The position numbers and the translations under genes were made by a program. Shown piece after piece: positions 2,557-57,034 of a stretch of 64,000 bases of DNA (position 1 is the stretch's first letter; each line of letters begins with the position of its first letter). Source of the stretch: Heterodontus francisci. Lineage: Eukaryota. The notes beneath the pieces were generated by a model. The model made no database searches and was not told the DNA's origin. It saw only the letters and a program-made list of their open reading frames with translations. Location: the NCBI RefSeq assembly GCF_036365525.1, contig NC_090399.1:20222529-20286528 (forward strand). Reading direction: 5' to 3'.

Positions 2557-3344
2557 ATCTACGCTTCTCTGATTCTGGCCTCGTGAGCTCCAACATTGGT
2601 GGCTGTGACTTCAGGTGCCTAGCCCCAAGCTCTGGAATTCCCTCACTCAACCTCTCCACTTCTCTCTCCTCCTTAAAGAAATTCATTAAAAACCTACCAC
2701 TCTGACCAAGCTTTTGGTCATCAGCTATAATATCATCTTATGTCACTTGGTCAAAGTTTGCTTATAATGCTCTTGTGAAGTGCCTTGTGATGTTATATTA
2801 CATTAAAGGTGCAATATAAATGCAAGTTGTTTTTGTTGTTGTTGAAGAAGACTGGGGGTGTTCTCCCCAACTTCACTAAAACAGATGATCTAGTCATTTA
2901 TCTCATTGCTGTTTGTGGGAGTTTGCTGCTGTGTGTAAACTGGATGCTGCATTGTCTACATTTCAAGAGTGACTGCATTTCAAAAAGGAGTCGAATTGGC
3001 TGTGATGCACTTTTGGATGTCCTGGGGTGGTGAAAGGTGATTTATAAATGGAAATCATTCAGGTCTTGCTTTACTGAAGACCAGCGTGGTCTGAAATGCT
3101 CAGGAAGATGACTGTGCATACAACCGAACAATTCAAAGGTCAGGTGCATCAGAAGGGAAAAACTCAGGTAGCAGAGACACTGAGAGATATATGAAGCAGG
3201 AAAGCAAATTTGAATCAAAACAGTTGTTAGAAATGAAAATGTATTAGCACACTTCCAAATAGAAATAATCAGAATAAGTATAGACAATCAAAACTGTTAG
3301 GAATCAATTCACAGAAGTCATCCAAATACTTGGTTCAATTACAA

Positions 3345-8532: not shown

Positions 8533-9049
8533 AACACAGAGTAACACGCTGGCTGGAGTGTGTCACAGGCACAGAGTAACACACTGGCTGGAGTGTGTCA
8601 CATACACAGAGTAACACGCTGGCTGGAGTGTGTCATATCCACAGAGTAACACACTGGCTGGAGTGTGTCACATACACAGAGTAACACGCTGGCTGCAGTG
8701 TGTCATATCCACAGAGTAACACACTGGCTGGAGTATGTCACATACACAGAGTAACATGCTGGCTGGTGTGTGTCACAGGCACAGAGTAACACACTGGTTG
8801 GAGTGTGTCACACGCACACACAGAATAACACACTGGCTGGAGGGTGTCACACACACACAGAATAACACACTGGCTGGAGTGTATCACACACACACGCACA
8901 CTACACACACACACACACACAGAATAAAACACTGGCTGGAGTATGTCACGCACACAGAGTAATACACTGGCTGGAGTGTGTCACACACAAACACACACAC
9001 AGAATAACACACTGGCTGGAGTGTGTACACACACAGAGTAACACACAGA
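8533..9049 (+). repeat. ~35-bp minisatellite block
   Basis: Tandem CACAGAGTAACACACTGGCTGGAGTGTGTCACATA variants. Confidence 0.95.
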
Positions 9050-9056
9050 ATTAGAA

Positions 9057-12031
9057 TTAGAACATTACAGCGCAGTACAGGCCCTTTGGCCCTCGATGTT
9101 GCGCCGACCTGTGAAACCATCTGACCGACACTATTCCATTTTCATCCATATGTCTATCCAATGACCACTTAAATGCCCTTAAAGTTGGCGAGTCTACTAC
9201 TGTTGCAGGCAGGGCGTTCCACGCCCCTACTACTCTCTGAGTAAAGAAACTACCTCTGACATCTGTCCTATATCTATCACCCCTCAACTTAAAGCTATGT
9301 CCCCTCGTGTTTGCCATCACCATCCGAAGAAAAAGACTCTCACTATCCACCCTATATAACCCTCTGATTATCTTATATGTCTCTATTAAGTCACCTCTCC
9401 TCCTCCTTCTCTCCAATGAAAACAACCTCAAGTCCCTCAGCCTTTCCTTGTAAGACCTTCCCTCCATACCAGGCAACATCCTAGTAAATCTCCTCTGCAC
9501 CCTTTCCATAGCTTCCACATCCTTCCTATAATGCGGTGACCAGAACTGCACGCAATACTCCAGGTGCGGCCTCACCAGAGTTTTGTACAGCTGCAGCATG
9601 ACATCGTGGCTCCGAAACTCGATCCCCCTACTAATAAAAGCTAACACACCATATGCCTTCTTAACAGCCCTATTAACCTGGGTAGCAACCTTCAGGGATT
9701 TATGCACCTGGACACCAAGATCTCTCTGTTCATCTACACTACCAAGAATCTTCCCATTAGCCCAGTACTCTGCATTCCTGTTACTCCTTCCAAAGTGAAT
9801 CACCACGCACTTTTCCGCATTAAACTCCATTTGCCATCTCTCAGCCCAGCTCTGCAGCCTATCTATGTCCCTCTGTACCCTACAACATCCTTCGGCACTA
9901 TCCACAACTCCACCGACCTTAGTGTCATCCGCAAATTTACTAACCCACCCTTCTACACCCTCTTCCAGGTCATTTATAAAAATGACAAACAGCAGTGGCC
10001 CCAAAACAGATCCTTGCGGTACACCACTAGTAACTAAACTCCAGGATGAACATTTGCCATCAACCACCACCCTCTGTCTTCTTTCAGCTAGCCAATTTCT
10101 GATCCAAAGCTCTAAATCACCTTCAACCCCATACTTCTGTATTTTCTGCAATAGCCTACCGTGGGGAACCTTATCAAACGCCTTACTGAAATCCATATAC
10201 ACCACATCCACTGCTTTACCCTCATCCACCTGCTTGGTCACCTTCTCGAAAAACTCAATAAGGTTTGTGAGGCACGACCTACCCATCACAAAACCGTGCT
10301 GACTATCGCTAATGAACTTATTCTTTTCAAGATGATTAAACATCCTGTCTCTTATAACCTTTTCCAACATTTTACCCACAACCGAAGTAAGGCTCACAGG
10401 TCTATAATTACCAGGGCTGTCTCTGCTCCCCTTCTTGAACAAGGGGACAACATTTGCTATCCTCCAGTCTTCCGGCACTATTCCTGTCGACAATGACGAC
10501 ATAAAGATCAAGGACAAAGGCTCTGCAATCTCCTCCCTAGCTTCCCAGAGAATCCTAGGATAAATCCCATCTGGCCCAGGGGACCTATCTATTTTCACAC
10601 TTTCCAAAATTGATAACACCTCCTCCTTGTGAACCTCAATCCCATCTAGCCTAGTAGCCTGAATCTCAGTATTCTCCTCGACAACATTTTCTTTCTCTAC
10701 TGTAAATACTGACGCAAAATATTCATTTAACACTTCCCCTAGCTCCTCTGATTCCACACACAACTTCCCACTACTATCCTTGATTGGCCCGAATATAACT
10801 CTAGTCATTCTTTTATTCCTGATATACCTATAGAAAGCCTTAGGGTTTTCCCTGATCCTATCCGCCAATGACTTCTCGTGTCCTCTCCTTGCTCTTCTTA
10901 GCTCTCCCTTTAGATCCTTCCTGGCTAGCTTGTAACTCTCAAGCGCCCTAACTGAGCCTTCACGTCTCATCCTAACATAAGCCTTCTTCTTCCTCTTGAC
11001 AAGCTCTTCAACTTCTTTAGTAAACCACGGCCCCCTCGCTCGACAACTTCCTCCCTGCCTCACAGGTATATACTTATCAAGGACACGCAGTAGCTGCTCT
11101 TTGAATAAGCTCCACATTTCGATTGTTCCCATCCCCTGCAGTTTCCTTCCCCATCCTACGCATCCTAAATCTTGCCTAATCGCATCATAATTTCCTTTCC
11201 CCCAGCTATAATTTTTGCCCTGCGGAATATACCTATCCCTGCCCATCGCTAAGGTAAACCTAACCGAATTGTGATCACTATCACCAAAGTGCTCACCTAC
11301 ATCTAAATCTAACACCTGGCCGGGTTCATTACCCAGTACCAAATCCAATGTGGCATCGCCCCTGGTTGGCCTGTCTACATACTGTGTCAGAAAACCCTCC
11401 TGCACACACTGGACAAAAACTGACCCATCTAAAGTACTCGAACTATAGTATTTCCAGTCGATATTTGGAAAGTTAAAGTCCCCCATAACAACTACCCTGT
11501 TACTCTCGCCCCTGTCGAGAATCACCTTCGCTATCCTTTCCTCTACATCTCTGGAAGTATTTGGAGGTCTATAAAAGACTCCCAACAGGGTGACCTCACC
11601 TCTCCTGTTTCTAACCTCGGCCCATACTACCTCAGTAGACGAGTCCTCAAACGTCCTTTCTGTCGCTGTAATACTCTCCTTGATTAACAATGCCACACCA
11701 CCCCCCCCCCCCCCCCCCCTCCCCCTCTTTTACCATCTTCTCTGTTCTTACTGAAACATCTAAATCCCGGAACCTGCAACATCCATTCCTGCCCCTGCTC
11801 TACCCATGTCTCCGAAATGGCCACTACATCGAGATCCCAGGTACCAACCCATGCTGCAAGCTCACCCACCTTATTCCGGATGCTCCTGGCGTTGAAGTAG
11901 ACACACTTTAAACCAGGTTCTTGCTTGCCAGTGCCCTCTTGCGTCCTTGTAACCTTATCCCTGACCTCACTACTCTCAACATCCTGTACACTGGAACTAC
12001 AATTTAGGTTCCCATCCCCCTGCTGAATTAG
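9057..12031 (-). CDS. CR1 ORF2, AP endonuclease plus reverse transcriptase; one frameshift in the G-run at about 11700-11719
   Basis: Endonuclease motifs YFNARS, SETW, GDFN and SDH. RT motifs DFSKAFD, GVPQGSVLGP and FADD. An 879-aa open frame at 9057-11696 and an upstream N-terminal part in another frame, open to 12031. Confidence 0.93.
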
Positions 12032-12949
12032 TTTAAACCCCCCCGAAGAGCACTAGCAAATCTCCTCCCCAGGATATTGGTACCCCTCTGGTTCAGGTGA
12101 AGACCATCCTGTTTGTAGAGGTCCCACCTACCCCAGAAAGAGCCCCAGTTATCCAGGAAATCAAAACCCTCCCTCCTGCACCATCCCTGCAGCCACGTGT
12201 TCAACTCCTCTCTCTCCCTATTCCTCGCTTCACTATCACGTGGCACGGGCAACAACCCGGAGATAACAACTCTGTTTGTTCTCGCTCTAAGCTTCCACCC
12301 TAGCACCCTGAATTTCTGTCTTAAATCCCCATCTCTCTTCCTACCTATGTCGTTGGTGCCTATGTGGACCACGACTTGGGGCTGGTCCCCCTCCCCCTTA
12401 AGGATCCCAAAAACACGATCCGAGACATCACGAACCCTGGCACCTGGGAGGCAACATACCAACCGTGAGTCTCTCTCGTTCCCACAGAACCTCCTATCTG
12501 TTCCCCTAACTATGGAGTCCCCAATGACTAATGCTCTGCTCCTCTTCCCCTTTCCCTTCTGAGCAACAGGGACAGACTCTGTGCCAGATACCTGTACCCC
12601 ATTGCTTACCCCTGGTAAGTCGTCCCCCGAAACAGTATCCAAAACGGTATACCTGTTGTTGAGAGAAACGGCCACAGGGGATCCCTGCACTGCCTGCTGG
12701 TTCCCTCTCCTTCCCCTGACGGTAACCCATCTACCTACTTCTTTTACCTGAAGTGTGACTACCTCCCCATAACTCCTCTCAATAACCCCCTCCGCCTCCC
12801 GAATGATCCGAAGTTGCTCCAGCTCCAGTTCCCTAACGCGGTTCACGAGGAGCTGGAGTTGGGTGCACTTCCCGCAGATGCAGTCAGCAGGGACACTCTT
12901 GGCGACCCTTACCTCCCACATTCTGCAGGAGGAACATACAACTGCCTTA
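12028..12949 (-). CDS. CR1 ORF1 (zinc finger, coiled coil, SGNH/GDSL esterase); start codon lost by truncation
   Basis: CSSC...CGKC, LQLLVNRVRELELEQL, GDSIVR, HIGTND and DGLHLN motifs. Confidence 0.9.
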
Positions 12950-17770: not shown

Positions 17771-18692
17771 TTGTTTATCCATTATTTTATATTTCCTTTC
17801 CTCATTCTTAAAATCATCTTTTTATGAGACGTTAAAAAGTAACTGATTTAATTTTAATAAAAATGCAGTACTGGTTCAGCTGGATACAATCGTCATACTG
17901 CTAAATGTTGAATTAAATCTCAAACTATTCACGTATGGGGTAATTTTCACTTTGTATTAACATCAATGTGCAAGAAAGACGGAAGGGCTGTAAAATACGG
18001 GGCCCATTTGATATCAATTGCTTTTGTTTTTTTTTGCACGGCAATGAAAGTTAAAAATGTTCCCAAGGTTTCTATTTGCATTGAAAGTGAGATAAAACAG
18101 CATTAATCAGTAATAGGCAAGGAATGTTTATACGTTTTAACCTCATCGAACCGTAAAAAACTGATTGCATTGGATGAAACTCTGATTTTACCTGTCGCCC
18201 GATTTTCTTCTCTATTGAAGTCACTGTGAACAACATTGGACGGAACGAGCATCCCATAGAATCCGTCAGCATCCGGCCCAGCAAGTTACTTCCAAATGGC
18301 TCCCATTAATGTTTTCATATTAGAATATCTTGAAGTTACCGCAGGGAAAAAATGTCTGGCAAGAAGATGGGGAAGTATGCAGCAGCTGCTATGTGACAAT
18401 TTATTCCAATCCAGGTTAACTATTAGCTATATTGTGCAATGGGTAATACTGAATTCACCGCCCCTTGTACATTCAGCCTGTTACTCTCTTCCAATGACTT
18501 CCATGGAAAAAAAATGGATGGCCAATTAGATACCGCTATTTGACCCGGTCACACATGGCTAAAATTACCCCCGGTTCCTCCACCCCACAACTCCCAGCCT
18601 TATGATGCTTAACACCAGATTTCCAACTTGCTGTCAGTGTACATCTCTGTTGAATTTTTCTGTTAAATTTCCTGTTTTTGCATTTCTCCTAG

Positions 18693-19591
18693 CAAACCTG
18701 CTGTCATTTCTGGTTCTTTTCCAAAGGAAATGCGGTCTTTCCAAAGGAATCACTCATTATATGATGGCCATGGCCGTGGGAGACCTCATGGTCCTTATCT
18801 TTAATGTTATTGTGAGCCAAATCATCAAGTATCATTTTCCAGATTCATTGCTGAACTACACATCCACGTGTCGTTTTACTGTCTTCATGCAAGGGTTTAG
18901 CATTCAGCTCTCTATCTGGTTCACAATGTCGTTCACCTTTGACCGTTTTGTCGCAATTTGTTGCCAGAAATTGAAATCAAGATATTGCACCGAAAGGACA
19001 GCCACCATGGTTGTAACGGCCATGTGTGTGCTCAACATTTTGATCAATATTCCCATGCCTTTCCGCTATGAGCCCGATTATATTCTCAACAATATACAGT
19101 GGGGCTGCCGCACCATCACAGGATATTTTACTTCACCCGCATGGAAGGTTCACCAATGGATTACCAATCTCTCAAGTACATTACTTCCAATTCCTTTGCT
19201 GCTGCTGTTGAACTCTCTCACCGTCAGGCACATCTTATTAGCCAGTAGAGCTCGCAAAGCCCTGAAGAGCAACAACAATGGAAAAACCGGCAGTGATCCC
19301 GAGATGAAGAACAGAAGAACATCCATCATTCTACTCTTTGCTATCTCGGGCACTTTTATTGTGTTGTCGGCCCCTATTACCGTAATACACATTTGTGTCG
19401 GTGTCACACAGACACTCGATTTCCAAGGTTCAAACTCACTTTATTTGGCAATTAGAATCACATTTCTGTTGATGTGCACCAGCTCCTGTACAAACACTTG
19501 TATTTATGCACTGACACAGAGGAGATTCAGAGCGGAGATCAGGAATATGGTGAAATATCCGTATTATCTCATTGTTAAATTATTTAAATAA
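18693..19591 (+). CDS. GPR139/GPR142-like class A GPCR copy 1, exon 2 (spliced protein 320 aa)
   Basis: Polypyrimidine tract and AG acceptor at 18691-18692. Hydrophobic TM segments with motifs CGLSK, AMAVGDL, FTFDRFVAICC, an ECL2 Cys, LLNSLTVRHIL, DPEM.NRR and SSCTNTCIY..TQRRFR. Confidence 0.93.
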
Positions 19592-33147: not shown

Positions 33148-35226
33148 GTAAGTAATTCCAAACTACCCTGAAAGATTTAGTGCACCATTGCTAAACTGCA
33201 TTATTATTTTCCCTGTGTGTTTTTGTTATTGTTGTTGTTGCCTTTGTGACGGTAATTTGCATTAGCCAGGTGTTAAAGTCGAGCATTCGATCGCTCGCCC
33301 ATTGATGAGTTCGTCCGATTTTCGTTCCCTTTGATGTTTATGTTAATGGCTCAGTCCTGTTCTATATCACTGGGCAGGCAGTCAATCCCTCCGCATTACA
33401 AAGTGAAAATGGACCCTGTGTCATTTGTACTGAGCTGTGGCTCTGTCGGTCGAAATCTCTGCTTTGAGTCGGATAATCTTGCGTTTCCCTCCCATTTCAG
33501 TGAGTTGAGTTCAGACTGTAAGCTGCCATTTCGGTGCAATATTGATGAAGTGATGCGATATTGTCGAATTATAGAATTGTTACAGCACAGAAGGAAACCA
33601 TTCATCACGTCGTGTCCATGCCAGTTCTCAGGGAGTGCAGCACAGCTCATCCCATTCCCCTGTCTTTCCCCCCGAGCCCAGCATTTTTCTCTTCAGATAA
33701 ATATTCAATTCCCTTTTGAAAGCCACAATTCAATCTGCCTTCACCACACTCTCAGGCAGTGGATTCCAGATCCGAACCATTCACTGCGGAAGATAACTTT
33801 TCCTCCCCTTTGATTCTTTCACCAAACGCCTTAAATCGGAGTCCTCTGAAATTCGACCCTCCCGCCAATGGGAACAGTTTCTCTCTATCTATTCTATCCA
33901 GTCCCCTCATGATTTTGAATACCTCTCAATATTGCACCTCTCAAATCTCCTCTCAATTATCTCTTCTTTGAGCAGAATAGTCCCAACAGAGCAGTAAATG
34001 AAGTCCCTCATCCCCAGACCATTTTGTAAATATTTTCTGCACTCTCTTCAATGCTTTCACGTCCTTCCTAAAGTGTGGTGCCCAGAATTGTATAGAATAC
34101 TCCAGCTGAGGCCGAGCCAGTGTTTTATAATGGCCCGACATAACTTCCTTGCTTTTCTACTCTCTGCCACGATCTATAAAGCCCAGGATCCGTATTCCTT
34201 ATTAACCAATTTCTCAACCTGCCCGATCACCTTCAACGATTTGTGCTCATACACCCGTCCCCCACATCCCCGCCAGAACCTTCTGCTCCTGAACCTTCTT
34301 TAGAATTGTTTATCCATTATTTTATATTGCCTTTCCTCATTCTTAAAATCATCTTTTTATGAGATGTTAAAAAATAACTGATTTAATTTTAATAAAAATG
34401 CAGAACTGGTTCAGCTGGATACAATCATCATACTGCTAAATGTTGAATTAAATCTCGAACTATTCACGTATGGGGTAACTTTCACTTTGTATTAACATCA
34501 ATGCGCAAAAAACACGGAAGGGCTGTAAAGTACGGGGCCCATTTGATATCAATTGCTTTTGTTTTACTTTGCACGGCAATGAAAGTTAAAAATGTTCCCA
34601 ATGTTTCTATTTGCATTGAAAGGGAGATAAAACAGCATTAATCAGTAATAGGCAAGGAATGTTTATATGTTTTAACCTAATTGAACCGTAAAAAACTGAT
34701 GGCATTGGATACAACTCTGATTTTACCTGTCGCCCGATTCTCTTCTCTATTGAAGTCACTGTGAACAACATTGGGCGGAACGAGCATCCCATAGAATCCG
34801 TCAGCATCCGGCCCAGCAAGTTACTTCCAAATGGCTCCCATTAATGGTTTCATATTAGAATATCATGAAGTTACCGCAGGGAAAAAATGTCTGGCAAGAA
34901 GATGGGGAAGTTTGCTGCAGCTGCCACGTGACAATTTATTCCAATCCAGGTTAACTATTAGCTATATTGTGCAATGGGTAATATTGAATTCTCCGCCCCT
35001 TGTACATTCAGCCTGTTACTCTCTTCCAATGACTTCCATGGAAAAAAAATGGATGGCCAATTAGATACCGCTATTTGACCCGGTCACACATGGTTAAAAT
35101 TACCCCCGGTTCCTCCACCCCACAACTCTCAGCCTTATGATGCTTAACACCAGATTTCCAACTTGCTGTCAGTGTACATCTCTGTTCAATGTTTTGTTAA
35201 ATTTCCTGTTTTTGCATTTCTCCCAG

Positions 35227-36125
35227 CGAACCTGCTGTCAGTTTTGGTTCTTTTCCAAAGGAACTGCGGTCTTTCCAAAGGAATCACTCGTTATATGATG
35301 GCCATGGCCGTGGGAGACCTCATGGTCCTTATCTTTAATGTTATTGTGAACGAAATCATCAAGTATCATTTTCCAGATTCATTGCTGAACTACACTTCCG
35401 CGTGTCGCTTTAGTGTCTTCATGCAAGGGTTTAGCATTCAGCTCTCTATCTGGTTCACACTGTCGTTCACCTTTGACCGTTTTGTCGCAATTTGTTGCCA
35501 GAAATTGAAATCAAGATATTGCAACGAAAGGACAGCCACCACGGTTATAACGACCATGTGTGTGCTCAACATTTTGAACAATATTCCCATGCCTTTCCGC
35601 TATGAGCCCGATTATACTCTCAACAATATACAGTGGGGTTGCCGCACCGTCACAGGATATTTTACTTCACCCGCATGGAAGATTCACCAATGGATTACCA
35701 TCCTCTCAAATGCATTACTTCCAATTCCTTTGCTGCTGCTGTTGAACTCTCTCACCGTCAGGCACATTTTATTAGCCAGTCGAGCTCGCAAAGCCCTGAA
35801 GAGCAACAACAATGGAAAAACCGGCAGTGATCCCGAGATGAAGAACAGAAGAACATCCATCATTCTACTCTTTGCTATCTCGGGCAGTTTTATTGTGTTG
35901 TCGGCCCCTATTACCGTAATACACATCTGTGTCGGTGTCACACAGACAGTCACTTTCCAAGGTTCAAACTCACTTTATTTGGCAATTAGAATCACATTTC
36001 TGTTGATGTGCACCAGCTCCTGTACAAACACTTGTATTTATGCACTGACACAGAGGAGATTCAGAGCGGAGATCAGGAATATGGTGAAATATCCGTATTA
36101 TCTCATTGTTAAATTATTTAAATAA
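35227..36125 (+). CDS. GPR139-like GPCR copy 2, exon 2 (spliced protein 320 aa)
   Basis: TTTCTCCCAG acceptor and an 899-nt open frame with the same motifs. Confidence 0.93.
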
Positions 36126-45966: not shown

Positions 45967-46483
45967 AACACAGAGTAACACGCTGGCTGGAGTGTGTCAC
46001 AGGCACAGAGTAACACACTGGCTGGAGTGTGTCACATACACAGAGTAACACGCTGGCTGGAGTGTGTCATATCCACAGAGTAACACACTGGCTGGAGTGT
46101 GTCACATACACAGAGTAACACGCTGGCTGCAGTGTGTCATATCCACAGAGTAACACACTGGCTGGAGTATGTCACATACACAGAGTAACACGCTGGCTGG
46201 TGTGTGTCACAGGCACAGAGTAACACACTGGTTGGAGTGTGTCACACGCACACACAGAATAACACACTGGCTGGAGGGTGTCACACACACACAGAATAAC
46301 ACACTGGCTGGAGTGTATCACACACACACGCACACTACACACACACACACACACAGAATAAAACACTGGCTGGAGTATGTCACGCACACAGAGTAATACA
46401 CTGGCTGGAGTGTGTCACACACAAACACACACACAGAATAACACACTGGCTGGAGTGTGTACACACACAGAGTAACACACAGA
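45967..46483 (+). repeat. Minisatellite block, unit 3
   Basis: Near-identical to 8533-9049. Confidence 0.9.
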
Positions 46484-46490
46484 ATTAGAA

Positions 46491-49467
46491 TTAGAACATT
46501 ACAGCGCAGTACAGGCCCTTTGGCCCTCGATGTTGCGCCGACCTGTGAAACCATCTGACCGACACTATTCCATTTTCATCCATATGTCTATCCAATGACC
46601 ACTTAAATGCCCTTAAAGTTGGCGAGTCTACTACTGTTGCAGGCAGGGCGTTCCACGCCCCTACTACTCTCTGAGTAAAGAAACTACCTCTGACATCTGT
46701 CCTATATCTATCACCCCTCAACTTAAAGCTATGTCCCCTCGTGTTTGCCATCACCATCCGAAGAAAAAGACTCTCACTATCCACCCTATATAACCCTCTG
46801 ATTATCTTATATGTCTCTATTAAGTCACCTCTCCTCCTCCTTCTCTCCAATGAAAACAACCTCAAGTCCCTCAGCCTTTCCTTGTAAGACCTTCCCTCCA
46901 TACCAGGCAACATCCTAGTAAATCTCCTCTGCACCCTTTCCATAGCTTCCACATCCTTCCTATAATGCGGTGACCAGAACTGCACGCAATACACCAGGTG
47001 CGGCCTCACCAGAGTTTTGTACAGCTGCAGCATGACATCGTGGCTCCGAAACTCGATCCCTCTACTAATAAAAGCTAACACACCATATGCCTTCTTAACA
47101 GCCCTATTAACCTGGGTAGCAACCTTCAGGGATTTATGCACCTGGACACCAAGATCTCTCTGTTCATCTACACTACCAAGAATCTTCCCATTAGCCCAGT
47201 ACTCTGCATTCCTGTTACTCCTTCCAAAGTGAATCACCACGCACTTTTCCGCATTAAACTCCATTTGCCATCTCTCAGCCCAGCTCTGCAGCCTATCTAT
47301 GTCCCTCTGTACCCTACAACATCCTTCGGCACTATCCACAACTCCACCGACCTTAGTGTCATCCGCAAATTTACTAACCCACCCTTCTACACCCTCTTCC
47401 AGGTCATTTATAAAAATGACAAACAGCAGTGGCCCCAAAACAGATCCTTGCGGTACACCACTAGTAACTAAACTCCAGGATGAACATTTGCCATCAACCA
47501 CCACCCTCTGTCTTCTTTCAGCTAGCCAATTTCTGATCCAAAGCTCTAAATCACCTTCAACCCCATACTTCTGTATTTTCTGCAATAGCCTACCGTGGGG
47601 AACCTTATCAAACGCCTTACTGAAATCCATATACACCACATCCACTGCTTTACCCTCATCCACCTGCTTGGTCACCTTCTCGAAAAACTCAATAAGGTTT
47701 GTGAGGCACGACCTACCCATCACAAAACCGTGCTGACTATCGCTAATGAACTTATTCTTTTCAAGATGATTAAACATCCTGTCTCTTATAACCTTTTCCA
47801 ACATTTTACCCACAACCGAAGTAAGGCTCACAGGTCTATAATTACCAGGGCTGTCTCTGCTCCCCTTCTTGAACAAGGGGACAACATTTGCTATCCTCCA
47901 GTCTTCCGGCACTATTCCTGTCGACAATGACGACATAAAGATCAAGGACAAAGGCTCTGCAATCTCCTCCCTAGCTTCCCAGAGAATCCTAGGATAAATC
48001 CCATCTGGCCCAGGGGACCTATCTATTTTCACACTTTCCAAAATTGATAACACCTCCTCCTTGTGAACCTCAATCCCATCTAGCCTAGTAGCCTGAATCT
48101 CAGTATTCTCCTCGACAACATTTTCTTTCTCTACTGTAAATACTGACGCAAAATATTCATTTAACACTTCCCCTAGCTCCTCTGATTCCACACACAACTT
48201 CCCACTACTATCCTTGATTGGCCCGAATCTAACTCTAGTCATTCTTTTATTCCTGATATACCTATAGAAAGCCTTAGGGTTTTCCCTGATCCTATCCGCC
48301 AATGACTTCTCGTGTCCTCTCCTTGCTCTTCTTAGCTCTCCCTTTAGATCCTTCCTGGCTAGCTTGTAACTCTCAAGCGCCCTAACTGAGCCTTCACGTC
48401 TCATCCTAACATAAGCCTTCTTCTTCCTTTTGACAAGCTCTTCAACTTCTTTAGTAAACCACGGCTCCCTCGCTCGACAACTTCCTCCCTGCCTCACAGG
48501 TATATACTTATCAAGGACACGCAGTAGCTGCTCTTTGAATAAGCTCCACATTTCGATTGTTCCCATCCCCTGCAGTTTCCTTCCCCATCCTACGCATCCT
48601 AAATCTTGCCTAATCGCATCATAATTTCCTTTCCCCCAGCTATAATTTTTGCCCTGCGGAATATACCTATCCCTGCCCATCGCTAAGGTAAACCTAACCG
48701 AATTGTGATCACTATCACCAAAGTGCTCACCTACATCTAAATCTAACACCTGGCCGGGTTCATTACCCAGTACCAAATCCAATGTGGCATCGCCCCTGGT
48801 TGGCCTGTCTACATACTGTGTCAGAAAACCCTCCTGCACACACTGGACAAAAACTGACCCATCTAAAGTACTCGAACTATAGTATTTCCAGTCGATATTT
48901 GGAAAGTTAAAGTCCCCCATAACAACTACCCTGTTACTCTCGCCCCTGTCGAGAATCATCTTCGCTATCCTTTCCTCTACATCTCTGGAAGTATTTGGAG
49001 GTCTATAAAAGACTCCCAACAGGGTGACCTCACCTCTCCTGTTTCTAACCTCGGCCCATACTACCTCAGTAGACGAGTCCTCAAACGTCCTTTCTGTCGC
49101 TGTAATACTCTCCTTGATTAACAATGCCACACCACCACCCCCCCCCCCCCACCCCTCCCCCTCTTTTACCATCTTCTCTGTTCTTACTGAAACATCTAAA
49201 TCCCGGAACCTGCAACATCCATTCCTGCCCCTGCTCTACCCATGTCTCCGAAATGGCCACTACATCGAGATCCCAGGTACCAACCCATGCTGCAAGCTCA
49301 CCCACCTTATTCCGGATGCTCCTGGCGTTGAAGTAGACACACTTTAAACCAGGTTCTTGCTTGCCAGTGCCCTCTTGCGTCCTTGTAACCTTATCCCTGA
49401 CCTCACTACTCTCAACATCCTGTACACTGGAACTACAATTTAGGTTCCCATCCCCCTGCTGAATTAG
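46491..49467 (-). CDS. CR1 ORF2 (endonuclease plus RT), frameshifted in the G-run at about 49134-49155
   Basis: Same motifs as the unit 1 copy, with 4 amino-acid differences visible in the long frame. Confidence 0.93.
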
Positions 49468-50385
49468 TTTAAACCCCCCCGAAGAGCACTAGCAAATCTC
49501 CTCCCCAGGATATTGGTACCCCTCTGGTTCAGGTGAAGACCATCCTGTTTGTAGAGGTCCCACCTACCCCAGAAAGAGCCCCAGTTATCCAGGAAATCAA
49601 AACCCTCCCTCCTGCACCATCCCTGCAGCCACGTGTTCAACTCCTCTCTCTCCCTATTCCTCGCTTCACTATCACGTGGCACGGGCAACAACCCGGAGAT
49701 AACAACTCTGTTTGTTCTCGCTCTAAGCTTCCACCCTAGCACCCTGAATTTCTGTCTTAAATCCCCATCTCTCTTCCTACCTATGTCGTTGGTGCCTATG
49801 TGGACCACGACTTGGGGCTGGTCCCCCTCCCCCTTAAGGATCCCAAAAACACGATCCGAGACATCACGAACCCTGGCACCTGGGAGGCAACATACCAACC
49901 GTGAGTCTCTCTCGTTCCCACAGAACCTCCTATCTGTTCCCCTAACTATGGAGTCCCCAATGACTAATGCTCTGCTCCTCTTCCCCTTTCCCTTCTGAGC
50001 AACAGGGACAGACTCTGTGCCAGATACCTGTACCCCATTGCTTACCCCTGGTAAGTCGTCCCCCGAAACAGTATCCAAAACGGTATACCTGTTGTTGAGA
50101 GAAACGGCCACAGGGGATCCCTGCACTGCCTGCTGGTTCCCTCTCCTTCCCCTGACGGTAACCCATCTACCTACTTCTTTTACCTGAGGTGTGACTACCT
50201 CCCCATAACTCCTCTCAATAACCCCCTCCGCCTCCCGAATGATCCGAAGTTGCTCCAGCTCCAGTTCCCTAACGCGGTTCACGAGGAGCTGGAGTTGGGT
50301 GCACTTCCCGCAGATGCAGTCAGCAGGGACACTCTTGGCGACCCTTACCTCCCACATTCTGCAGGAGGAACATACAACTGCCTTA
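49464..50385 (-). CDS. CR1 ORF1 (zinc finger, coiled coil, SGNH esterase), 5'-truncated
   Basis: GDSIVR, HIGTND and DGLHLN motifs. Confidence 0.9.
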
Positions 50386-54057: not shown

Positions 54058-56135
54058 GTAAGTAATTCGAAACTATCCTGAAACATTTAGTGCACCATTG
54101 CTAAACTGCATTATTATTTTCCCTGCGTGTTTTTGTTATTGTCGTTGTTGCCTTTGTGGCGGTAATTTGCATTGGCCAGGTGGTAAGGACGATCAATAGA
54201 ATGCTCGCCCATTGATGAGCTCGTCCGATTTTCGTTCCCTTTGATGTTTATGTTAATGGCTCAGTCCGGTTCTATATCACTGGGCGGGCAGTCAATCCCT
54301 CCGCATTACAAAGTGAAAATGGACCCTGTGTCATTTGTACTGAGCTGTGGCTCTGTCGGTCGAAATCTCTGTTTAGAGTCGGATAATCTTGCGTTTCCCT
54401 CCCATTTCAGTGAGTTGAGTTCATACTGTAAGCCGACATTTCGATGCAATATTGATGAAGTGATACGATATTGTCGAATTATAGAATTGTTACTGCACAG
54501 AAGGAAACCATTCATCACGTCGTGTCCATGCCAGTTCTCAGCGAGTGCAGCACAGCTCATCCCTTTCCCCTGTCTTTCCCCCCGAGCCCAGCATTTTTCT
54601 CTTCAGATAAATATTCAATTCCCTTTTGAAAGCCACAATTCAATCTGCCTTCACCACACTCTCAGGCAGTGGATTCCAGATACGAACCATTCACTGCGGA
54701 AGATAACTTTTCCTCCCCTTTGATTCTTTCACCAAACGCCTTAAATCGGTGTCCTCTGAAATTCGACCCTCCCGCCAATGGGAACAGTTTCTCTCTATCT
54801 ATTCTATCCAGTCCCCTCATGATTTTGAATACCTCTCAATATTGCAACTCTCAAATCTCCTCTCAATTATCTCTTCTTTGAGCAGAATAGTCCCAACAGA
54901 GCAGTAAATGAAGTCCCTCATCCCCAGACCATTTTGTAAATATTTTCTGCACTCTCTTCAATGCTTTCACGTCCTTCCTAAAGTGTGGTGCCCAGAATTG
55001 TATAGAATACTCCAGCTGAGGCCGAGCCAGTGTTTTATAATGGCCCGATATAACTTCCTTGCTTTTCTACTCTCTGCCACGATCTATAAAGCCCAGGATC
55101 CGTATTCCTTATTAACCAATTTCTCAACCTGCCCGATCACCTTCAACGATTTGTGCTCATACACCCGTCCCCCACATCCCCGCCAGAACCTTCTGCTCCT
55201 GAACCTTCTTTAGAATTGTTTATCCATTATTTTATATTGCCTTTCCTCATTCTTAAAATCATCTTTTTATGAGACGTTAAAAAGTAACTGATTTAATTTT
55301 AATAAAAATGCAGTACTGGTTCAGCTGGATACAATCGTCATACTGCTAAATGTTGAATTAAATCTCGAACTATTCACGTATGGGGTAATTTTCACTTTGT
55401 ATTAACATCAATGTGCAAGAAAGACGGAAGGGCTGTAAAATACGGGGCCCATTTGATATCAATTGCTTTTGTTTTGCTTTGCACGGCAATGAAAGTTAAA
55501 AATGTTCCCAATGTTTCTATTTGCATTGAAAGGGAGATAAAACAGCATTAATCAGTAATAGGCAAGGAATGTTTATATGTTTTAACCTAATCGAACCGTA
55601 AAAAACTGATGGCATTGGATACAACTCTGATTTTACCTGTCGCCCGATTCTCTTCTCCATTGAAGTCACTGTGAACAACATTGGGCGGAACGAGCATCCC
55701 ATAGAATCCGTCAGCATCCGGCCCAGCAAGTTACTTCCAAATGGCTCCCATTAATGGTTTCATATTAGAATATCATGAAGTTACCGCAGGGAAAAAATGT
55801 CTGGCAAGAAGATGGGGAAGTTTGCAGCAGCTGCTACGTGACAATTTATTCCAATCCAGGTTAACTGTTAGCTATATTGTGCAATGGGTAATATTGAATT
55901 CTCCGCCCCTTGTACATTCAGCCTGTTACTCTCTTCCAATGACTTCCATGGAAAAAAATGGATGGCCAATTAGATACCGCTATTTGACCCGGTCACACAT
56001 GGTTAAAATTACCCCCGGTTCCTCCACCCCACAACTCTCAGCCTTATGATGCTTAACACCAGATTTCCAACTTGCTGTCAGTGTACATCTCTGTTCAATG
56101 TTTTGTTAAATTTCCTGTTTTTGCATTTCTCCCAG

Positions 56136-57034
56136 CGAACCTGCTGTCAGTTTTGGTTCTTTTCCAAAGGAAATGCGGTCTTTCCAAAGGAATCACTCGT
56201 TATATGATGGCCATGGCCGTGGGAGACCTCATGGTCCTTATCTTTAATGTTATTGTGAACGAAATCATCAAGTATCATTTTCCAGATTCATTGCTGAACT
56301 ACACTTCCGCGTGTCGTTTTACTGTCTTCATGCAAGGGTTTAGCATTCAGCTCTCTATCTGGTTCACAATGTCGTTCACCTTTGACCGTTTTGTCGCAAT
56401 TTGTTGCCAGAAATTGAAATCAAGATATTGCACCGAAAGGACAGCCACCACGGTTATAACGACCATGTGTGTGCTCAACATTTTGAACAATATCCCCATG
56501 CCTTTCCGCTATGAGCCCGATTATACTCTCAACAATATACAGTGGGGCTGCCGCACCGTCACAGGATATTTTACTTCACCCGCATGGAAGATTCACCAAT
56601 GGATTACCATCCTCTCAAGTACATTACTTCCAATTCCTTTGCTGCTGCTGTTGAACTCTCTCACCGTCAGGCACATTTTATTCGCCAGTAGAGCTCGCAA
56701 AGCCCTGAAGAGCAACAACAATGGAAAAACCGGCAGTGATCCCGAGATGAAGAACAGAAGAACATCCATCATTCTACTCTTTGCTATCTCGGGCAGTTTT
56801 ATTGTGTTGTCGGCGCCTATTACCGTAATACACATCTGTGTCGGTGTCACACAGACAGTCGATTTCCAAGGTTCAAACTCACTTTATTTGGCAATTAGAA
56901 TCACATTTCTGTTGATGTGCACCAGCTCCTGTACAAACACTTGTATTTATGCACTGACACAGAGGAGATTCAGAGCGGAGATCAAAAATATGGTGAAATA
57001 TCCGTATTATCTCATTGTTAAATTATTTAAATAA
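56136..57034 (+). CDS. GPR139-like GPCR copy 3, exon 2 (spliced protein 320 aa)
   Basis: TTTCTCCCAG acceptor and an 899-nt open frame. Confidence 0.93.

Follow-up and report, generated by a model that had tools for sequence, protein, structure and literature searches.

A conserved slippery heptamer at the ORF1-ORF2 junction of esterase-type CR1 LINEs points to probable programmed -1 ribosomal frameshifting

How the second open reading frame of a LINE is translated is called an open question in the available portions of several reviews (PMC3894237, PMC3708506, PMC5009743). CR1-group elements, which the accessible text of PMC13343379 describes as the dominant retrotransposons of most vertebrates, raise this question at our locus: where does ORF2 translation begin if ORF2 opens in another frame at the ORF1 stop and offers no ATG before its endonuclease? 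The window studied here is a 64,000-nucleotide stretch of the 6.0-Gb genome of Heterodontus francisci (NC_090399.1, positions 20,222,529 to 20,286,528), and the closest named homologues come from sharks and rays. The relevant features, in window coordinates, are as follows.

12028..12948, minus strand: CR1 ORF1, 5'-truncated (zinc-finger/coiled-coil part plus SGNH esterase; PF13472, PDB 4c1b), ending ...RGGLN and stop
12031..12037, minus strand: slippery heptamer T_TTA_AAC in ORF1 phase
12028..12030, minus strand: ORF1 stop TAA, directly 3' of the heptamer; the overlapping ORF2-frame codon is ATT
12011..12020, minus strand: conserved G-rich box GGGGGATGGG, 11 nt past the heptamer, a candidate stimulator
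11993..12012, minus strand: weak, non-conserved 5-bp stem GGAAC/GTTCC
9057..12037, minus strand: ORF2 frame (-1 relative to ORF1) with linker, APE endonuclease and reverse transcriptase; one break in this copy
11804..11911, minus strand: N-terminal endonuclease motifs LKCVYFNARS to SETW, 5' of the first ATG
11780..11782, minus strand: first in-frame ATG of ORF2
11697..11725, minus strand: expanded G-run shifting the ORF2 frame
9047..9105, minus strand: 3' terminal stem-loop and (ATTCTA)n-type tail
46481..50384, minus strand: second copy of the same CR1 insertion in another array unit, heptamer at 49473-49467

Profile searches matched ORF2 to PF00078 (E 1.3e-35) and PF03372, that is, to an APE endonuclease followed by a reverse transcriptase (RT), and identified ORF1 as an SGNH esterase (PF13472, E 4.8e-14; PDB 4c1b, E 4.1e-24). 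The 3' end consists of a stem-loop and a short tandem tail, with no poly(A). Judged by this architecture and by junctions resembling published CR1 consensus sequences, the element is a CR1 LINE of the esterase-ORF1 type. At window 9057-9105 the ORF2 frame continues across the 3' stem-loop and ends within the first repeat of the tail, which leaves the window CR1 family almost without a 3'UTR. Vertebrate CR1 LINEs in the accessible text of PMC13343379 likewise combine an esterase ORF1, an APE and RT ORF2, and a stem-loop with a microsatellite tail. Public sources assign two CR1 ORF1 proteins (P0007 and P0080) to a bacterium and a flatworm, and these labels probably reflect host-DNA contamination.

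An earlier note on this DNA had placed T_TTA_AAC in ORF1 phase immediately before the stop, and the minus strand indeed reads GGG GGT TTA AAC TAA TTC AG, with the heptamer at 12037-12031 and its twin at 49473-49467. As the note also claimed, the -1 frame is that of ORF2; it encodes FKLIQQGDG...LKCVYFNARS...ISETW, and its open stretch already begins 5 codons before the heptamer. An X_XXY_YYZ heptamer in zero-frame phase and a downstream ORF that stays open in the -1 frame across the site thus occur together. The presence of the 7-mer alone means little because TTTAAAC has 24 matches in the window versus 10.9 expected; it is phase and conservation that carry the signal.

The first in-frame ATG (11782-11780) lies 85 codons after the TTT codon and past both endonuclease motifs, which bears out the earlier description. 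It is codon 86, inside the endonuclease domain, in 29 of 30 copies of the window family; in the remaining copy the anchor is off by one base. In L010, a copy with ORF2 open through the locus end, the endonuclease profile begins at residue 47 of the -1 frame, and starting at the first ATG drops profile positions 1-63 of 225, ISETW included. This motif aligns with IQETH of the L1 endonuclease, and its Glu presumably binds metal. Because a start at the first ATG loses the endonuclease N-terminus with ISETW, the window family needs entry into ORF2 upstream of any AUG. The earlier assertion that AUG is missing upstream of the endonuclease therefore holds for the window family, but some related families do have one, in one case as UAAUG.

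The two window copies represent one insertion that was duplicated along with a tandem array, and the unit between them has an empty site, so they are not independent. Neither contains the ORF1 start, whose ATG is seen only in longer copies elsewhere. In both, an expanded G-run breaks ORF2, with 29 and 31 nt between the flanks versus 9 nt in 14 of 30 copies. These window copies are inactive relics of the proposed frameshift design, 5'-truncated and carrying the expanded G-run. Across four array copies this run in the endonuclease region measures 29, 31, 23 and 20 nt (window 11697-11725 and 49130-49160; L003 and L004), against the typical 9 nt, which reflects either real microsatellite growth after insertion or a homopolymer assembly error. 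The array itself, with units of about 17-21 kb, repeats single-exon rhodopsin-family 7TM receptor ORFs (18563-19591, 35148-36125, 56057-57034); the CR1 insertion is present in some units and absent at about 29474.

The earlier note had named loss of the heptamer as a finding that would count against its reading, and the heptamer proved to be kept within and across families and species. Among 137 copies from six CR1 families (A to F) of the H. francisci genome, 121 carry the exact heptamer followed by TAA or TAG (A 28/30, B 30/30, C 24/30, D 12/12, E and F together 27/35), three further loci not being anchored in this count. The queries used to retrieve families B, C and D ended in LN, a bias toward intact ends; E and F were fetched with a remote query ending in GN, and the matches stopped before the last ORF1 residues. 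Copies within one family are 96-99% alike, and within-family conservation is therefore trivial.

Metagenome contigs contained 24 loci. Of the 15 that were inspected, 10 extend to the end of ORF1; T_TTA_AAC stands there in nine (followed by TAG in six, TGA in one and a degenerate codon in two), and one distant element has G_TTA_AAC TAG. Wherever these junctions are readable, ORF2 lies in the -1 frame, and in two elements (L097 and L092) it runs for about 1,000 codons, open from the heptamer. Most of these elements appear to be bird-type from their likeness to a swallow protein. In the published CR1 consensus table (PMC13343379), 18 of 23 matches to TTTAAAC plus stop look by eye like junctions, and they come from alligator, crocodile, bearded dragon, frog, coelacanth, bowfin, chimaera, sharks and rays; as the table was searched for the motif itself, with about 400 characters seen per sequence, it gives presence and not frequency. 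Shifted-frame copies read FKL at the junction in ray and other proteins, and one protein (P0279) that reads across the junction as FKL fits a copy with an indel. A search of longer homologues returned no natural full-length in-frame ORF1-ORF2 fusion, which is weak evidence. RNA contigs cover the junction, with strand, level and translation not readable from them.

Does this conservation exceed what the protein requires? Nine vertebrate lineage representatives, with 26-79% amino acid identity, were compared codon by codon. Identical residues share a codon in only about 25-62% of cases, and among 21 columns with an invariant residue a single codon is kept in only three, namely one Cys, the final Leu (TTA) and the final Asn (AAC). 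The first T of the heptamer never varies, although its codon encodes any of five amino acids (G, A, T, S or C), and TTA makes up 3-24% of Leu codons in the five ORF2s counted. These comparisons indicate that the heptamer is conserved at the nucleotide level, beyond coding need.

The C-termini of ORF1 homologues carry a related pattern. In 181 of 259 homologues the C-terminus could be scored; 121 of these end in N (99 LN, 13 GN, 2 KN and 7 other), and 60 do not, including a teleost clade. The residue preceding LN permits an NNT codon in 98 of 99 proteins, that preceding GN permits NNG in 13 of 13, and that preceding KN permits NNA in both. X_XXA_AAC is thus compatible with the preceding residue in 113 of 114 proteins, as far as protein evidence goes. 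Residues encoded with a pyrimidine only and those with a purine only stand at 31:1 before LN and 0:11 before GN, and P0258, ending in HPN, would fit C_CCA_AAC. Kinship inflates these counts; in a quick tree, however, QGN, SGN, AGN, SKN and FLN ends stand side by side in one supported clade. The xGN and xKN proteins are linked to LINE ORF1s by homology alone. DNA of xGN-type relatives was sought in viral contigs, genome contigs and plasmids and none was obtained, and an atlas search gave no more than confirmation of an SGNH fold. A subclade of the xGN group (P0161, P0179, P0200, P0234 and P0255) ends in FFR, FFH, GFR or GFC; slippery sites rich in U, for example G_GGU_UUU, could underlie these endings.

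Because ORF1 ends on a conserved T_TTA_AAC plus stop and ORF2 lies in the -1 frame, esterase-ORF1 CR1 elements likely produce ORF2 as part of an ORF1-ORF2 fusion, through programmed -1 ribosomal frameshifting. Most ribosomes would stop at UAA and release an ORF1 protein of about 310 aa. A minority would slip with tRNA-Leu and tRNA-Asn in place, from UUA AAC to UUU AAA, and then read on, giving ...RGG-L-N-L-I-Q-Q-G-D-G... at the junction. The product would be an esterase-endonuclease-RT fusion of about 1,300 aa, as estimated from coordinates, and the rarity of slippage would set a high ratio of ORF1 to ORF2 protein.

The best candidate for a stimulator is a G-rich box. In all 12 elements compared, drawn from 8 lineages, the pattern G4-6 N1-3 G3 begins 8-11 nt past the heptamer, against a background of 0-2 looser matches per 3 kb downstream in the same elements. 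It is kept where the encoded peptide changes (L092 and L104) and is incomplete in L094 and some published consensus sequences; four G3 tracts were seen in family D only. According to the accessible part of PMC3919603, a G-quadruplex behind UUUAAAC can stimulate -1 shifting, to about 7% at the best spacing of 6-8 nt. The box in CR1 would work by binding a protein, by forming a G-quadruplex or by pairing with a strand elsewhere, and not as a local hairpin.

Local structure was sought in several ways. In the window copy the region 3' of the heptamer folds no better than shuffles (z +0.66 to +2.02), no consensus pairs of a conserved hairpin appeared across 10 lineages, and no stimulatory hairpin or pseudoknot was seen 5-9 nt downstream. 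A simple search for pseudoknots, a check that the earlier note had proposed, gave none clearly above shuffles (best 4/60). Its GGAAC/GTTCC stem is where it was said to be (12012-11993, starting 19 nt past the heptamer), but as a likely stimulator it was dropped, being weak and not conserved. Pairing between the 3' tail and the sequence after the heptamer was set aside because it is not family-specific (own-family residual +0.87 kcal/mol, permutation p 0.83, 8 lineages): among 288 windows the window-family tail takes rank 34, it pairs better with the tail of another family, and a favourable value was obtained for family B alone (z -2.1). When homologous internal pairing partners were sought, with no control, only proline-codon-rich motifs came up.

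Several other routes to ORF2 have to be weighed against frameshifting. ORF2 might be a separate protein made by termination-reinitiation at the ORF1 stop, on an AUG or near-cognate codon overlapping it (UAAUG, UAAUU, UAGUG), as in SART1 and probably L1, with the heptamer forming part of the reinitiation signal or with both routes operating. The accessible texts of PMC3894237, PMC3708506 and PMC2881922 give UAAUG as the site used by SART1, that of PMC5009743 describes L1 ORF2 initiation as AUG-independent, and three published shark consensus sequences read TAATG. The -1 geometry is identical to that of UAAUG, and family B has TAATG, the SART1 stop-start, in 30 of 30 copies; the overlapping codon is AUU in families A and E and GUG in D, so reinitiation may coexist with the frameshift. 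A further point against frameshifting is the in-frame AUG that families D and E, as well as several bird-type elements, carry 5' of the endonuclease, at varying positions. However, AUG stands at the overlap in only one of 13 lineage representatives, the window family having UAAUU, while C, F, L092 and most bird-type elements carry AAU, GUU, GUA, GGU or GAU there, and the TAG used by many lineages rules out an overlapping AUG. In 6 of 13 representatives, family B included, the 100 nt upstream contain no UGGGA, a calicivirus reinitiation motif, and in the others its positions are scattered. Reinitiation also leaves the invariant first T and the LN/GN/KN switching unexplained, and we consider it unlikely as the route to ORF2.

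It might also be argued that the heptamer persists through simple inheritance, as the lineages share ancestry, or through a required Leu-Asn C-terminus of the esterase, with ORF2 reached by an unrelated route such as internal initiation. Codons vary freely in 18 of the 21 invariant-residue columns, by which this explanation is largely refuted; the 3-24% share of TTA among Leu codons in five ORF2s and the replacement of Leu by Gly or Lys together with the class of the preceding residue speak against it as well, and we regard it as very improbable. We give equally little credence to an ORF2-only mRNA spliced from a 5'UTR donor to an AG just past the ORF1 stop (TTCAG|CAG), or to RNA polymerase slippage joining the two frames. 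A 5'UTR GT-AG intron does work, as its exact removal in 17 genomic copies attests, and CAGCAG follows the ORF1 stop in family A; but a search for genomic copies joining the 5'UTR donor to the ORF2 start gave 0 matches, the 5' exon stretch examined has no ATG, and among the contig joints listed (10 of 10 in one set, 15 of 264 in another) no GT-AG joint falls at the junction. Moreover, CAGCAG is not conserved in families C and D or in bird-type elements.

The -1 frameshift preferred here has relatives among known systems. According to the accessible part of PMC5009743, U_UUA_AAC, G_GGA_AAC and A_AAA_AAC belong to the heptamers most prone to shifting, with G_UU(A) as a known variant; the same text describes viral -1 signals (coronavirus U_UUA_AAC, arterivirus G_UUA_AAC, retroviral gag-pol) that share with CR1 an in-phase X_XXY_YYZ, a short overlap and the passage from a structural protein to a polymerase. 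CR1 differs from them in that the stop follows the heptamer directly and that the searches for a local pseudoknot or hairpin 3' of it found none; the stimulator distance is taken up by a G-rich box instead. SART1 UAAUG has the frame relation seen in CR1, and family B has UAAUG itself, but in CR1 it is the heptamer that is conserved and not the AUG. A review legend (PMC5911963) states that the Dictyostelium APE-type non-LTR elements TRE5-A and TRE3-A both require a -1 frameshift for ORF2, so -1 frameshifting has a claimed precedent among LINEs; these elements belong to another clade with another ORF1 type, and their frameshift is known here from that legend alone. In the main text of PMC13343379, as far as accessible, "frameshift", "translation", "start codon" and "overlap" have 0 occurrences and the junction signal goes unremarked. 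A literature search with few subscription papers in its scope found no report of a CR1 frameshift signal; the 1997 chicken and turtle CR1 papers, outside that scope, may mention one.

If true, this frameshift would directly answer how CR1 ORF2 is translated, would predict an esterase-endonuclease-RT fusion, and would explain ORF2 annotations that start inside the endonuclease. Natural -1 signals would gain a deeply conserved member whose candidate stimulator is unusual. A broader reading is conceivable, in which a large branch of esterase-ORF1 LINEs, well beyond vertebrate CR1, uses a Gag-Pol-like -1 fusion with interchangeable X_XXA_AAC sites (U, G, A, perhaps C) and an unstructured G-rich box 8-11 nt downstream as stimulator, with no pseudoknot; we put this forward tentatively and rather doubt it. 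Were the branch-wide reading true, it would define a new class of frameshift signal in cellular genomes, one conserved from before sharks and birds diverged.

The 5'UTR of the window CR1 family contains a GT-AG intron of about 195 nt (L010, about 2754-2950, minus strand; also L027 and L203-L205). Genome-wide, 17 copies are precisely spliced, and in one more the donor lies 5 nt further downstream; exact donor sites that are unspliced number 1,604, many of them in tandem 5'UTR repeats. It appears from these copies that spliced CR1 RNA has been retrotransposed. One 5'UTR repeat unit is common to families A and D and lies upstream of each (e.g. C2:167080693 and C2:167081320), while the families themselves are distant, with about 52% ORF1 identity in the esterase part. 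This combination suggests that a 5'UTR was swapped between them.
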